From: an uncultured delta proteobacterium
GTDB taxonomy: Bacteria > Desulfobacterota > Binatia > DP-6
DNA length: 64,000 nucleotides
Direction of reading: 5' to 3'
Assembly (NCBI GenBank): GCA_963851365.1
Contig: CAWKPA010000003.1
Span: 64,390 to 128,389 of the forward strand
How positions within the stretch are numbered: the first letter of the stretch is position 1; the number at the start of each line of letters is the position of its first letter. Positions 47,858 to 57,898 of this stretch are shown here, piece after piece. The notes under the pieces were generated by a model. It saw only the letters and a program-made list of their open reading frames with translations. It made no database searches and had not been told where the DNA came from. Made by a program: the position numbers and the translations under genes.

Positions 47858-48454
47858 ATGGGACGCATGGTGCGGGGAATCCGTGTCGCGGCGACGTGGC
47901 TGGCGGTGGTGGGTCTGGTCGGGGTGTTGGGCGCCGGGTGCGCGGGCACCAAGCGACAACGGATACTGGCCGACGAGGATCGGCTCGACTGGGCCCGCAA
48001 CGAGCCCAGCTTCGTGGTGATCCGGAAGTCGTGCAAGACGCTCGACGTGTATCGCTACGGCGAGCGCGTGCGCAGCTACCCCGCGGTGTTCGGGCAGGCC
48101 GGCGCCAAGGGCGGGCGGAAGCTGTTCGAAGGCGACATGCGAACGCCGACGGGTCTCTACGCGATCATCGCCGACCGCTGGCACGATCGCTGGGAACACT
48201 TCTTCCTGCTCGACTACCCGAACGCCGCCGACGCGCAGCGCTACCGTGTCGCCATGTCGCAGGGCCAGATCCCGGTGCGCGGCGCGCAGCCCGTCGGCAT
48301 CGGCAGCGCCATCGGCATCCACGGCAGCGACAAGCCCTGGCTGAACCGCCAGGGCATCGACTGGACGTGGGGGTGTATCTCGATCGACAGCGCCGCCGCG
48401 CGCGAGCTGAAGTCCTACGCCGGCGCCGGCACGCCGGTGCTGATCCTCGAGTGA
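47858..48454 (+). CDS. L,D-transpeptidase (YkuD domain) lipoprotein
   Basis: Signal peptide with Cys, GDMRTPTGLY, catalytic HG...GTWGCISI. Confidence 0.8.
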   Translation: MGRMVRGIRVAATWLAVVGLVGVLGAGCAGTKRQRILADEDRLDWARNEPSFVVIRKSCKTLDVYRYGERVRSYPAVFGQAGAKGGRKLFEGDMRTPTGLYAIIADRWHDRWEHFFLLDYPNAADAQRYRVAMSQGQIPVRGAQPVGIGSAIGIHGSDKPWLNRQGIDWTWGCISIDSAAARELKSYAGAGTPVLILE

Positions 48455-49673: not shown

Positions 49674-49817
49674 GGGCGATCTCCTTTGCGGGCCCGTTCA
49701 TGCCACTGGCGACACATCCTCGGCAAACGCTCGCGGGCGAGCCGCCGGAAGGCCGGCGCGATTGGCACGAACCCGCCGCCCAACGGAACCGCCCGAGCCG
49801 CCCGGCGCGCGGCCGGC

Positions 49818-50663
49818 TCACTCCACGAGGCGCACCCGGCTCCGATGCACGTACCCCGCCACGCCCTGCCGGGTGGTGACGGGCCACCAATCCCCGGGCG
49901 AGACCCTGGTGGTGAAGGGCTCGCCCTCGACGATCCGGGTGACGACGCCGAACGCGGCCCCCGGTCCGGACCGGACGTTGGTGAAGCCGTCCGGATCGTT
50001 GATCACCGCGCGCGCGCTCCCGGGCTCGACCGGCGCCGGCGCGGTCGCCGGCGGCGAGGTCGGCGCCGGGCCCCGCTCCGGCGCCGCCGGCGGGGGTGGA
50101 ACGGGCGCCGGCACGGGCCGTTCCCGCCCGCGCATGGAGAGTCCCGCCACGAGCGCGGCGCCGAGGGCGACGGCGCCCGCGATGGCCGGCCATCCGGCAC
50201 GGCCACCGGGTCGGGGTGGCGCGGACGCCGGCGGCGGGGTTCGCGGGGTGTCCGGCGGCGACTTCGAGCGACCACGCGCGAGCAGCCGCCCGATGTCGTC
50301 CGCCAGCTGGTCGAACTCCGGCGACGCCTCGCCGGGGGTCCAGCGTCGCAGGTCCGCCGTCTGGATCTCCCGGAAGCCTCGCGGCGGCGCGACGTCGTCG
50401 AGCAGGACCGGCACCAGGACCCCGCGCTGCTTGGCGTCCTCGGCCTCCTCGGACACCCAGCTCGAGCCGGTCGAATCGCGCGACCAGGCGACGAGCACGC
50501 AGCGCGCCTCCTCGAGCGCCGTCCCGATGTAGCTGCGCCAGGTTTCTCCGGCGGGAATCCGCCGGTCCCAGAACACCGACCACCCCCGCCGTTCCAGCCC
50601 GGCGATGAGCGGCTGGATCCGCGCGGCGTCCTCCCGGGCGTAGCTGACGAAGATGTCGGTCAT
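49818..50663 (-). CDS. TIR-domain protein with a central TM helix and C-terminal bacterial SH3 (SH3b) domain
   Basis: 281 aa. N-terminal TIR_2-type domain MTDIFVSYAREDAARIQPLIAGLERRGWSVFWD...VLVAWSRDSTGSSWVSEEAEDA. Pro-rich linker. TM WPAIAGAVALGAALVAGL. C-terminal SH3_3-like INDPDGFTNVRSGPG...GDWWPVTTRQGVAGYVHRSRV. Confidence 0.75.
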   Translation of the reverse strand: MTDIFVSYAREDAARIQPLIAGLERRGWSVFWDRRIPAGETWRSYIGTALEEARCVLVAWSRDSTGSSWVSEEAEDAKQRGVLVPVLLDDVAPPRGFREIQTADLRRWTPGEASPEFDQLADDIGRLLARGRSKSPPDTPRTPPPASAPPRPGGRAGWPAIAGAVALGAALVAGLSMRGRERPVPAPVPPPPAAPERGPAPTSPPATAPAPVEPGSARAVINDPDGFTNVRSGPGAAFGVVTRIVEGEPFTTRVSPGDWWPVTTRQGVAGYVHRSRVRLVE

Positions 50664-50899
50664 GACGCCTCCCCCGCCAACATCGCCCGCAGCCGCGTCT
50701 CGAGCTGCGGCAGCCAATCGTCGAGCGGGGTCTCGGCGTCGACGACGATCTCCACCTTGCCGTTCGGCAGCGTGCGGACGGTGCCGGGCGAAGCGGGCTT
50801 CAGCGGGATCACCACCGCCTCGCGCGACAGGCCGAGCCGATCGAGCACCTCGAAGATGCGCTGGATCACGGGCAGCGTGACGGCAGTGAGCGCAGCCAT
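50660..50899 (-). CDS. small protein of unknown function, translationally coupled to the TIR gene
   Basis: 79 aa: MAALTAVTLPVIQRIFEVLDRLGLSREAVVIPLKPASPGTVRTLPNGKVEIVVDAETPLDDWLPQLETRLRAMLAGEAS. Its stop overlaps the TIR start as ATGA. Confidence 0.45.
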   Translation of the reverse strand: MAALTAVTLPVIQRIFEVLDRLGLSREAVVIPLKPASPGTVRTLPNGKVEIVVDAETPLDDWLPQLETRLRAMLAGEAS

Positions 50900-55352: not shown

Positions 55353-57086
55353 GTGCCCGTAATAGCCCGCTCGAGCCGAACCCCCGGGGGTCCCGTGGCT
55401 TCAGATCGTCCGCCTCCCACCGATCGCCGTTCCGCGGGCGCCCACGCCGTGCTGGTCGCCGTCGCGGGCGCCGCCTCCGCCGGCCTCGCGCTCGCCGTCT
55501 ACGCGAGAATCGCCTGGTGGTCCGTCCCCATCGGCTGGATCGGTCTCGTGCCCTGGCTGCTCGTCCTGGACCGGACGCGGTCCATCGGCGGAGCGCTCGG
55601 CGCCGGGGTCATGATGAGCATCGCGTTCGTGATGGCCGTCCTGCCGTGGCTGCCCCGGATGATCGGGGACTACACGGGGACGCCCTGGCCGATCTGCCTC
55701 TTGTTGGCGCCGATCCTGGCGCCGGTTCTGGAGCCGCAATTCCTCAGCTTCGCGGCGGCACGCCATCTGGCCCGCCAACCGGGCGGCACGGGCTGGTGGC
55801 TGCCGGCGCTCGTCGGCGCTGGGGTCTACGTGGGCACCGAATGGGCGTGGCCGAAGGTCTTCGCCGACACGCTCGGGCACGGCCTGTATGCGTCGCCGCG
55901 GCTCCGGCAGGCCGCCGACCTGATCGGCGCGCACGGCCTCACCTTCGCGACGATCCTCGGGAACGAGTGCGTGCTGGCCGCGTTCCGCGCGCTGCGGGCG
56001 CCCCGGCCGCTCGCCGCCGCCGGACGTGCGCGCGGGTGGACGGCGGGCGTCCTGCCGCCCGCGGCGTGCCTCGTGCTGCTCGCCGGCGGCCTGGCCGCCT
56101 ACGGCGCCGCCCGCCTGGCGCAGCTCCGCGACTCGAGCGCCGGCCAGCCGATCGCGGTCGCCAGCATCCAGGCGAACCTCGCGCACTATGATCGCCTGCG
56201 GCTCGAACTCGGCACCTACGAGACGGTCCGGCGCATCCTCGAGAGCCACTTCACGCTCTCCCGGAAGGCGCTGCGGCGACACCGGCTCGATCTGCTCGTG
56301 TGGCCGGAGACGATCTACCCGACGACGTTCGGGACGCCGCTGACCCCGGAGGGGGAGGACTTCGATCGCGCGATCGCCCGCTTCGTCGCGGACGCCGGCG
56401 CACCGCTCCTCTTTGGCGCCTACGCGACCGACGGCGCGACGCAGTTCAACGCCGCCCTGTTGCTCCAGACCCCGGCCCCTGGGCGGCTGAGCGGCGACAC
56501 CTATCGCAAGACGCGACTGTTCCCGTTCACGGAGTATCTCCCGGGTCCGCTCGACTCGGCGCGCGTCCGGCGGTGGCTACCGTGGGCCGGCACGTGGGCG
56601 CCGGGCGACGGCCCACGCGTCCTGACGATCGGGGCGCGCGGCGCCAAGCCGACGCGCATCGCGCCGCTCATCTGCTACGACGCGCTGGACACCGACTTCG
56701 TCGTCGGAGCGGTGCGGCAGGGCGCGGAGCTGCTCGTCACCCTGTCGAACGACTCCTGGTTCGCCTTCCCCGGCGTGCAGCGGTTCATCCTGATCATGGC
56801 GGCGTTTCGCAGCGTCGAGACCCGTCGGCCCCAACTGCGGTCGACACCCACCGGGGTGTCGGCGCTGATCGACGACACCGGCGCCGTGACGGCGTCCCTC
56901 GACGTCGGCGTGCGTGGCGTACTGTCGGGCACCCTCCGCCCGGCGACCACCCGGACGCTGCTCCTCGCCTGGGGCAACTGGCTACCGCCCGCGGCGTTGG
57001 TCGGCGCCCTGCTGCTGCTGCCCGCCGCCCGTCGCCGCGCTGCGCGTGAGGCGCCGCCACCGGTCGAACGCCGGCAGCGCGCCTAG
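55353..57086 (+). CDS. lnt: apolipoprotein N-acyltransferase
   Basis: N-terminal polytopic membrane domain plus CN-hydrolase domain (VWPETIYPT, RKTRLFPF, ICYDAL). Confidence 0.85.
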   Translation: MPVIARSSRTPGGPVASDRPPPTDRRSAGAHAVLVAVAGAASAGLALAVYARIAWWSVPIGWIGLVPWLLVLDRTRSIGGALGAGVMMSIAFVMAVLPWLPRMIGDYTGTPWPICLLLAPILAPVLEPQFLSFAAARHLARQPGGTGWWLPALVGAGVYVGTEWAWPKVFADTLGHGLYASPRLRQAADLIGAHGLTFATILGNECVLAAFRALRAPRPLAAAGRARGWTAGVLPPAACLVLLAGGLAAYGAARLAQLRDSSAGQPIAVASIQANLAHYDRLRLELGTYETVRRILESHFTLSRKALRRHRLDLLVWPETIYPTTFGTPLTPEGEDFDRAIARFVADAGAPLLFGAYATDGATQFNAALLLQTPAPGRLSGDTYRKTRLFPFTEYLPGPLDSARVRRWLPWAGTWAPGDGPRVLTIGARGAKPTRIAPLICYDALDTDFVVGAVRQGAELLVTLSNDSWFAFPGVQRFILIMAAFRSVETRRPQLRSTPTGVSALIDDTGAVTASLDVGVRGVLSGTLRPATTRTLLLAWGNWLPPAALVGALLLLPAARRRAAREAPPPVERRQRA

Positions 57087-57898
57087 TGCACCTCGGCGCC
57101 GCCCGCGACGGTGAGCGTGATGCCGGTCACGTTCTCCGCCCGGCAGAGATACACGGCGGCGTCCGCGATCTCCTCCGGGGTTTGCTCGCGCTTCAGGAAC
57201 GTGGCCCGCTGAACGAAGTCCTCGAACACGCGGTCGAGCGGCACGCCCGTCATCTCCGCGAGGACGGGGTTCAGCACCTCGGTCCACATCGCGGTGCGGA
57301 TGAACCCCGGGCACAGCGCGTTCACCGCGACGTTCGCCGGCCCCAGCTCTTCGGCCAGCGACTGCGTGAACGAGATCACCGCGGCCTTCGACGCGCAATA
57401 CGCCGACAACCCGGCGCGTCCCGTCTTGCCCGCGACCGACGCCACGTTGACGATGCGCCCGCTGCCGCGCGCCACCAGCAGCGGCACCGCGGCGCGCGCG
57501 CACAGGAACACGCCCTTCACGTTCACCGCGAAGACGCGATCCCATGCCGTCTCCTCCATCGCCGCCACCGGCGCGGCTGCGATGACGCCCGCGTTGGCGA
57601 TCAGCACGTCGAGCCCGCCCAGCCGCTCCGCCACGGCACGCACGAGCAGGTCGACGTCGGACGCGAAGGTGACGTCGGCCGGCACCGCCACCGCGCGACG
57701 GCCGACCCGTTCGACCGCGGCGGCCGTGTCCTCGAGGTCGTCGCCCGAGGCCAGGCGGTAGGGCGTCGCCGCGTCGCGGTCGCGCGCGATGTCCGACACC
57801 GCGACGTCGCAGCCCGCCCGCGCCAGCGCGACGGCGATGGCCCGGCCGAGACCCCGCCCCGCGCCGGTCACCAACGCGATCTTGCCGTCGAGGTCCAC
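57083..57898 (-). CDS. SDR family oxidoreductase
   Basis: ALVTGAGRGLGRAIA Rossmann motif. NAG, Y-x3-K. Confidence 0.85.
   Translation of the reverse strand: MDLDGKIALVTGAGRGLGRAIAVALARAGCDVAVSDIARDRDAATPYRLASGDDLEDTAAAVERVGRRAVAVPADVTFASDVDLLVRAVAERLGGLDVLIANAGVIAAAPVAAMEETAWDRVFAVNVKGVFLCARAAVPLLVARGSGRIVNVASVAGKTGRAGLSAYCASKAAVISFTQSLAEELGPANVAVNALCPGFIRTAMWTEVLNPVLAEMTGVPLDRVFEDFVQRATFLKREQTPEEIADAAVYLCRAENVTGITLTVAGGAEVH

Follow-up and report, generated by a model that had tools for sequence, protein, structure and literature searches.

The bacterial Toll/interleukin-1 receptor (TIR) NADases AbTir, BtpA (TcpB), PdTIR, and BtTir are soluble proteins in which a coiled coil or other region occupies the N-terminus and the TIR domain the C-terminus. 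In TIR-STING, TIR-SAVED/Cap12, SPARTA TIR-APAZ, and TIR-NLR/Avs, a sensor and a TIR domain are joined in one polypeptide that acts as an NADase upon oligomerization; these anti-phage proteins sense cytoplasmic ligands (nucleotides, nucleic acids, or phage proteins) and are encoded in operons or defence islands. The Thoeris protein ThsB is a small TIR protein with a conserved glutamate. The known TIR enzymes (AbTir, SARM1, SPARTA, TIR-STING/SAVED) are active only upon self-association of their TIR domains, and, to our knowledge, the cue for every experimentally characterized bacterial TIR system is cytoplasmic or arrives as a nucleotide signal. Here we describe a gene from a 64,000-nucleotide stretch of DNA (contig CAWKPA010000003.1, positions 64,390 to 128,389, hereafter the window) of an uncultured bacterium of the class Binatia. 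It encodes a 281-aa protein composed of a TIR domain, a single transmembrane (TM) helix, and a bacterial SH3 (SH3b) domain, in this order, and its start codon overlaps the end of a gene for a 79-aa protein. A first-pass annotation of the window had read the two genes as a coupled pair in core DNA. The results below indicate that the TIR protein belongs to a large family of membrane-anchored TIR proteins with variable ectodomains and that the 79-aa protein stands outside this system.

The order of domains given by the first-pass annotation (TIR_2, proline-rich linker, one TM helix, SH3b) was borne out by both Pfam and an AlphaFold2 (AF2) model. Residues 4–120 match Pfam TIR_2 (PF13676; E 1e-22, 81.2 bits vs. 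a cut-off of 28), and residues 228–276 match SH3_3 (PF08239; E 1e-7, 32.4 bits vs. a cut-off of 27); the C-terminal domain is also matched by SH3_4 (E 2e-4). The AF2 model was built from a 43-sequence alignment and has a mean predicted local distance difference test (pLDDT) score of 85. In it, the TIR domain (residues 1–131, pLDDT >90) and a C-terminal barrel (residues 216–280, pLDDT ~96) are separated by disordered proline-rich linkers and a helix (residues 158–178), which coincides with the sole hydrophobic segment of the protein (mean Kyte-Doolittle value of 1.85 over 19 residues). In Foldseek searches, the first domain has the flavodoxin-like TIR fold; its nearest structure is the AbTir filament (7uxu; E 2e-7, TMt 0.75), followed by BtpA/TcpB, SARM1, PdTIR, SPARTA, and animal and plant TIR domains, with a probability of 1.00 for AbTir, BtpA, and SARM1. 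The TIR domains of the Toll-like receptors TLR15, TLR10, and TLR1 are among the fold matches. The barrel matches SH3b modules from a phage endolysin (Psm, 4krt) and an NlpC/P60 peptidase (3npf), with a root-mean-square deviation of 1.6–1.8 Å.

The segment SSWVSEE had been proposed to carry the conserved acidic residue of the TIR domain, and the alignments agree. W69 and E73 of this segment align with the W…E of BtpA/TcpB, BtTir, PdTIR, and ‘NAD(+) hydrolase AbTIR’ (family profile; 4c7m, 7uxr, 3h16, 7uwg, and 8g83), and phmmer aligns WVSEE with WCLDE of the plant protein RPV1. Relatives were compared in two samples, one of 120 word-index hits and the other of 135 non-redundant representatives. 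In the 120 homologues, W60, V70, and E73 do not vary and W69 almost never does; E73 is likewise constant in the 135 representatives. We take this column to be the position of the catalytic glutamate (E208 in AbTir, E217 in BtpA, and E642 in SARM1). The TIR domain is therefore predicted, from its sequence and model, to be equipped for the cleavage of nicotinamide adenine dinucleotide (NAD+), with E73 as the predicted catalytic residue.

An exhaustive HMMER search with the TIR domain as the query against 1.84 billion representatives (E<=1e-30) yielded 1,005 clusters at 50% identity, and the relatives sampled share one layout. The TIR domain begins at residue 1 with an M-x-DIF-x-SY start and carries WVxxE at residues 69–73. 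Exactly one hydrophobic helix is present ~150–200 residues in (100 of the 120 word-index relatives and 91 of the 135 representatives), followed by a tail with a median of 139 aa. Counts of lysine plus arginine (K+R) in the 15 residues flanking the helix are 3.12 before it and 1.56 after it, and 78 of 100 proteins have more of these residues on the N side (Wilcoxon p=6e-12). Because of this positive-inside bias, the topology of the family is read as N-in and C-out, in agreement with the cytoplasmic TIR and extracytoplasmic SH3b suggested for the window protein at the outset. The window protein has all the family-defining features. Sequence identity in the TIR domain is 59–75% within the SH3b subfamily and 60–69% to members with other C-termini, compared to only 11–32% in the linker and TM region.

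The tails, by comparison with this constant TIR domain, are highly diverse. Among the 120 word-index relatives, SPOR (20 proteins) and SH3_3 (16 proteins) were found along with FGE-sulfatase, Sel1, PDZ, YARHG, and pentapeptide repeats. The non-redundant representatives carry FGE-sulfatase, SPOR, Sel1, Fib_succ_major, pYEATS, PG_binding_1, PEGA, PASTA, and PAN domains, and most of their tails have no Pfam match. Individual loci added PASTA, PG_binding_1 with SBP_bac_5 (L071), SoxYZ-like, and multi-TM DUF805 ectodomains. Many of the ectodomains are of kinds that bind peptidoglycan or carbohydrate (SPOR, SH3b, PASTA, PG_binding_1, PEGA, and FGE-sulfatase/C-type-lectin-like), and four unrelated types of peptidoglycan-binding domain (SH3b, SPOR, PASTA, and PG_binding_1) recur at the same position. 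Judged from these sequences, the ectodomains are interchangeable on a constant N-terminal TIR domain. Several loci have tandem arrays of TIR–TM paralogs, two or three in number, that differ in their tails (L089 2-1987, L114 5284-7543, L116 6001-7597, L119 2637-4705, and L122 5059-7026); their C-terminal parts comprise one PASTA domain, two PASTA domains, multi-TM DUF805, or domains without assignment, as if the sensor part had been duplicated and had then diversified. For the window protein, we infer that the SH3b domain binds peptidoglycan, by analogy, since its fold is like that of cell-wall-binding modules and its sister proteins carry SPOR, PASTA, or PG_binding_1 at this place. A search with the SH3b domain alone for other output domains returned one fragment, the word index being too insensitive for this purpose. 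Collectively, these results indicate that the membrane-receptor TIR family is real, large, and previously undescribed in systematic surveys.

Two further observations concern the family. The top scores of the exhaustive search belong to five polypeptides with two tandem TIR stretches each (P0242, P0243, P0260, P0286, and P0304). One member comes from a cultured strain, Novosphingobium sp. RL4 (NZ_CP141945.1, L144 3962-5935), where it is encoded on a 1.8-Mb replicon and is unannotated in the PLSDB table; it consists of a TIR domain, a TM helix, and a periplasmic region of ~470 aa with TPR-like repeats, and it could be an experimental entry point.

How the window protein compares with described systems can now be stated. 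It shares with AbTir, BtpA, PdTIR, and BtTir, its best fold matches, the βA motif D-I-F-x-S-Y/H, the W…E pair, and the lack of a dedicated partner gene; unlike in these proteins, the TIR domain lies at the extreme N-terminus and is tethered through the membrane to a periplasmic domain, and the similarity is remote (profile E 1e-5 to 1e-7). Sensor and TIR are united in one polypeptide, as in the anti-phage fusions, and the PADLOC profiles SAVED_TIR (residues 3–76) and PDC-S66 match the TIR part only. However, the sensor of the TIR–TM family is extracytoplasmic, there is no cyclase, Argonaute, or NTPase partner, and the genes are not enriched in defence islands. Membership in CBASS, Pycsar, or SPARTA fails, as the protein has no SAVED, STING, cyclic nucleotide (cNMP)-binding, or APAZ domain and its gene has no cyclase or Argonaute neighbour. 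A single-pass layout with a ligand- or peptidoglycan-binding ectodomain, one TM helix, and a cytoplasmic signalling domain is also that of Toll-like and interleukin-1 (IL-1) receptors and of the PASTA Ser/Thr kinases of the PknB type, and some family members even carry PASTA ectodomains. The domains run in inverted order, however, with the TIR domain at the N-terminus and the ectodomain at the C-terminus; the ectodomains are unrelated, leucine-rich repeat and immunoglobulin ectodomains are absent, and the output is a TIR domain in place of a kinase. The resemblance lies in design and not in proven ancestry or function. The SH3_3 barrel superposes on the Psm and BACOVA_00612 modules and in this respect is like the SH3b domains of YgiM-type (TIGR04211), endolysin, and NlpC/P60 proteins, but what theirs are joined to is a hydrolase or a simple anchor instead of a TIR domain. 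The protein fails as a TIGR04211 SH3_and_anchor (YgiM) member (16.7 bits vs. a cut-off of 65); an 84%-identical fragment was labelled YgiM/DUF1202 by JGI.

The earlier view that this architecture is not a described system held up: neither PADLOC nor NCBIfam has a characterized system of this architecture to which the protein could be assigned, and the searched literature describes no TIR–TM–SH3b, TIR–TM–SPOR, or TIR–TM–PASTA protein. A classification survey found prokaryotic TIR groups to be architecturally diverse and has nothing more on point (PMC7075850), the TIR fusions described in surveys from the Aravind group are cytoplasmic (PMC7159879, PMC8195603), and TIRs that stand alone were left out of the latest systematic screen (Yirmiya et al., 2025, bioRxiv 10.64898/2025.12.03.692087). 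In our assessment, the protein is a variant of the sensor-fused TIR enzymes rather than a categorically new system.

A conserved partner or effector was sought among 83 family loci by ORF clustering, Pfam, and PADLOC, and no non-TIR neighbour family was found in >5 loci; therefore, the gene works by itself or together with genes that are not linked to it. We propose that the 281-aa protein would be a stand-alone, single-pass inner-membrane protein with the TIR domain in the cytoplasm and the SH3b domain in the periplasm. Through its ectodomain, the protein would register the condition of the cell wall or envelope, or a ligand when present, and a change in ectodomain binding or clustering would bring the cytoplasmic TIR domains together. 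Their self-association would assemble the active site around E73 and lead to cleavage of NAD+, and the outcome would be either NAD+ depletion with growth arrest or the release of an ADP-ribose (ADPR)-type product. As TIR enzymes need self-association, an outside-in switch is the most economical model, and the lack of a linked effector gene makes direct use of NAD+ or a diffusible ADPR-type product likelier than an operonic relay as in Thoeris. That the state of the ectodomain controls TIR oligomerization and NAD+ cleavage, a reading by analogy with known TIR enzymes, has in our judgement a little less than an even chance of being correct. The wider proposal, in which bacterial transmembrane TIR receptors of a Toll-like receptor design use a swappable ligand- or peptidoglycan-binding ectodomain to drive the oligomerization of a cytoplasmic TIR NADase, is made tentatively, and we would sooner expect it to fail than to hold in full. 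If true, a cue from beyond the cytoplasm, perhaps damage to the cell wall, could set off NAD+-based signalling or suicide: the cell would sense an attack on its wall (phage lysins, amidases of the type VI secretion system, lysozyme, or antibiotics) from the periplasm and answer with NAD+ collapse or re-signalling. A family of ~1,000 clusters with a constant TIR domain and swappable ectodomains, whose layout parallels that of Toll-like receptors, would also be a tractable model.

Several observations weigh against the outside-in receptor. Some TIR domains keep the glutamate yet serve as scaffolds or produce signals instead of depleting NAD+. The charge bias at the helix is significant family-wide and ambiguous for the window protein alone (K+R of 2 on the N side vs. 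3 on the C side), and SH3_3 is a broad family. Housekeeping genes (gyrase/topoisomerase IV, fumarase, UvrD, MiaA, RsgA, transporters, and FKBP) make up most of the 124 nearest neighbours in the 83 loci, with a few others (other TIRs, PIN, FGE-sulfatase, and PG_binding_1). PADLOC matches among the neighbours are sparse and generic (other TIRs, one UvrD-like protein, one reverse transcriptase-helicase, and one restriction endonuclease), and no defence-island enrichment was seen among the 124 in what was a crude test, made with short contigs from metagenomes. No member of the family was found in 50,697 phage records, and plasmids hardly carry it (2 of 72,556 records, 42–44% identity). Lastly, the TIR domain is unusually conserved (60–75% identity across ectodomain types), unlike fast-evolving immune TIRs, and for this reason an immune role is not favoured over a physiological one.

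The main rival explanation is a physiological one. It holds that the family couples the status of peptidoglycan or the septum to metabolism or cell-wall remodelling in a non-suicidal way, the TIR domain hydrolysing NAD(P)+ under local control, making an ADPR-type second messenger, or acting as a scaffold. The housekeeping neighbours, the very strong conservation of the TIR domain, and the absence from phages and rarity on plasmids would all fit this role, as would the SPOR, PASTA, PG_binding_1, and SH3b ectodomains; SPOR binds septal denuded glycan. Moreover, the closest full-length homologues (57% identity; L006 5908-7089, L007 5915-7102, and L008 5866-7050) are followed after 30–60 bp, in the same orientation, by a gene for a lytic transglycosylase with SLT_2 and PG_binding_1 domains, which the window lacks. 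However, the gene is patchily present even among close relatives and, in the window, occupies a variable cargo slot (see below), and ectodomain swapping and tandem paralog arrays are more typical of conflict or recognition systems. In addition, a 49%-identical TIR–TM–SH3b homologue (L005 5860-7307) adjoins toxin–antitoxin modules (HigB-like/HTH_3 and BrnT); no other context seen was clearly island-like. We regard the physiological explanation as a serious possibility, though not a probable one, and between an immune and a physiological role the evidence favours neither.

Signalling in trans as in Thoeris, in which the membrane TIR would make an isomer of cyclic ADP-ribose for an effector encoded elsewhere, appears improbable. 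It would account for a weak likeness to ThsB-type profiles (Pfam ThsB_TIR, E 0.04; PADLOC ThsB, 1e-3; NCBIfam ThcB4, 29.8 bits) and for the ThsB_TIR matches in 36–38 family members, and many new Thoeris types have been reported (Yirmiya et al., 2025, bioRxiv 10.64898/2025.12.03.692087). All of these scores, however, fall far under the family cut-offs (220 for ThcB4), and the protein fails as a Thoeris member. It is, unlike ThsB, membrane-anchored with an ectodomain, and its gene is flanked by the small orphan gene and SCP2 and not by ThsA or another effector. No effector-like gene is conserved beside the family in the 83 loci, whereas known Thoeris systems are operonic, and the survey that extended the Thoeris types set aside stand-alone TIRs.

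A translationally coupled two-gene system had been the reading of the first-pass annotation; we now consider it very unlikely that the 79-aa protein is part of such a system as a regulator, antitoxin, or sensor of the TIR protein. The pair was confirmed as two minus-strand ORFs with an ATGA overlap (Table 1). The independent gene callers used for two other samples of the same organism give the same two genes with the same 4-bp overlap, and a Shine-Dalgarno (SD)-like run, GGGGGAGG, lies in the 3′ end of the small gene. The two genes almost certainly share one transcript. The small protein, modelled as an α-β-β-α fold (pLDDT 86), matched nothing in Pfam, NCBIfam, PADLOC, or the PDB, which would leave room for such a role. 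However, it is both more widespread in Binatia and far better conserved than the TIR protein. Its 324 homologue clusters (72–80 aa, up to 90% identity) are nearly all from Candidatus Binatia, its gene is present in 51 species genomes (one genome per species scanned), and its identity to relatives is 70–90%, compared to 57% for the next-best homologue of the TIR protein. By tblastn, a TIR gene was found within ±6 kb of the small gene in 0 of the 51 genome loci. Searches with hidden Markov models (HMMs), in both of which the positive control worked, gave 0 TIR matches in 57 small-protein loci (542 kb) and 0 small-protein matches in 85 TIR-family loci (493 kb). In the closest TIR–TM–SH3b homologues (L005–L009), the upstream genes differ from those of the window. 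Elsewhere, the small gene has other neighbours: it overlaps the stop codon of an SDR gene, with no TIR gene nearby, in L001, L003, and L004, or lies beside a CstA gene. On synteny, tblastn, and the reciprocal HMM searches, we reject the 79-aa protein as the TIR partner. It is a conserved orphan of the class Binatia, where it is core, and the ATGA coupling is a local, lineage-specific junction.

Comparison of the syntenic site places the TIR gene in a variable slot. The closest relative (L010, small protein 90% identical) has the gene order of the window (ECH, divergent cstA, small gene, SCP2) and no TIR gene; only 131 bp separate its small gene from SCP2 (L010 3979-4108), where the window has the TIR gene and a 144-bp spacer instead. 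The DNA alignment of the two (~90% identity) stops exactly at the stop codon of the small gene and resumes at the ribosome-binding site of SCP2. The TIR gene is likewise absent at this site in L011, L014, and L015. Because the closest relative shares the synteny without it, the TIR gene is accessory cargo; it was probably inserted in this lineage behind the 79-aa gene, where it would use the promoter and the 3′ end (SD plus ATGA) of that gene. The slot, which in the window spans 49674-50659 from the small gene to SCP2, showed neither an integrase nor repeats. The TIR gene has no tRNA or integrase context, and flanking direct or inverted repeats were only chance-level GC-rich matches. Neither a terminator nor a promoter consensus was found in the spacer, and its fold z-score (−0.49) is nothing unusual. 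Hence, of the ‘native-GC core DNA’ claimed earlier, the first half stands, as the GC and GC3 (GC at third codon positions) of the TIR gene are native to the host, while the second does not, as the gene is not core; a 4-bp overlap and native GC establish neither a functional gene pair nor core status. Other relatives hold different genes in the slot: an unrelated 104-aa reverse-strand ORF (L011 4596-5248), a 361-aa secreted protein (L016 and L017; L016 6208-7443), or a hydrolase with a GNAT acetyltransferase (L001 5223-7581).

That the insertion is degenerating or without function, or that the gene was annotated in error in a high-GC genome, is scarcely credible: such DNA does give many long spurious ORFs here and the gene is absent from the closest relatives, but the ORF is intact with a GC3 of 0.918, like that of its neighbours and above that of the overlapping ORFs, its Pfam match and all family-invariant residues are kept, both globular domains are modelled at pLDDT >90, and the 281-aa protein is identical in three assemblies (the window and the two other samples). 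Both frames of the pair have a GC3 of ~0.92 and neighbouring genes 0.91–0.96; since the long overlapping ORFs in other frames reach only 0.63–0.84, they are spurious high-GC artefacts. The ATG at 50663, and not an upstream TTG, is the start of the TIR gene because the homologues begin with M-x-DIF-x-SY. Taken together, the anatomy of the 281-aa protein and the evolutionary conclusions are held with high confidence. The coordinates are listed in Table 1.

Table 1. Features of the TIR–TM–SH3b gene and the adjoining small gene (coordinates in the window)
Feature	Position	Strand	Basis or remark
TIR–TM–SH3b gene, 281 aa	49818..50663	-	ATG 50661-50663, TGA 49818-49820; Pfam TIR_2 + SH3_3
79-aa small gene	50660..50899	-	ATG at 50899, TGA 50660-50662
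ATGA stop/start overlap of small gene and TIR gene	50660..50663	-	Sequence
Shine-Dalgarno-like run GGGGGAGG	50668-50675	-	Within the terminal codons of the 79-aa gene
TIR domain, residues 1-131, predicted cytoplasmic	50271..50663	-	pLDDT, Foldseek
WxxxE motif codons W69-V70-S71-E72-E73	50445..50459	-	E73 = 50445-50447, predicted catalytic glutamate
Single TM helix, residues 158-178, between disordered Pro/Ala-rich linkers	50130..50192	-	Hydropathy, AF2
SH3_3 beta-barrel, residues 216-280, predicted periplasmic	49824..50018	-	Pfam, pLDDT, Foldseek
Spacer, 144 bp, TIR stop to SCP2 start	49674..49817	-	Alignment with L010

The surroundings of the pair were as first annotated, with SCP2, CstA, and YkuD genes on the flanks (Pfam and gene calls), and the immediate neighbours are metabolic. 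The first-pass annotation had also pointed out a nearby L,D-transpeptidase gene. A YkuD L,D-transpeptidase gene lies near the small gene and SCP2 in 15 of the 51 Binatia genomes, regardless of any TIR gene; because relatives without a TIR gene have it at this place as well, its nearness reflects ancestral synteny, and we reject a link to the TIR gene. The YkuD gene of the window (47867-48454, plus strand) has a lipoprotein-like signal at its start (…LGAGC…).

The small gene has two further associations. In 13–14 of the 51 genomes (L013–L063), it lies directly beside a gene for a CstA-family transporter, either divergent from the ortholog or 25–220 bp downstream of, and co-directional with, a paralog that is 33% identical to the CstA of the window. 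This placement recalls that of two small partner genes in E. coli, ybdD at cstA and yjiX at btsT. In L001, L003, and L013, the small gene is immediately preceded by an SDR gene whose ortholog (82% identity) is found in the window at 57086-57898 on the minus strand; as this is ~6 kb from the small gene, the region has been rearranged.

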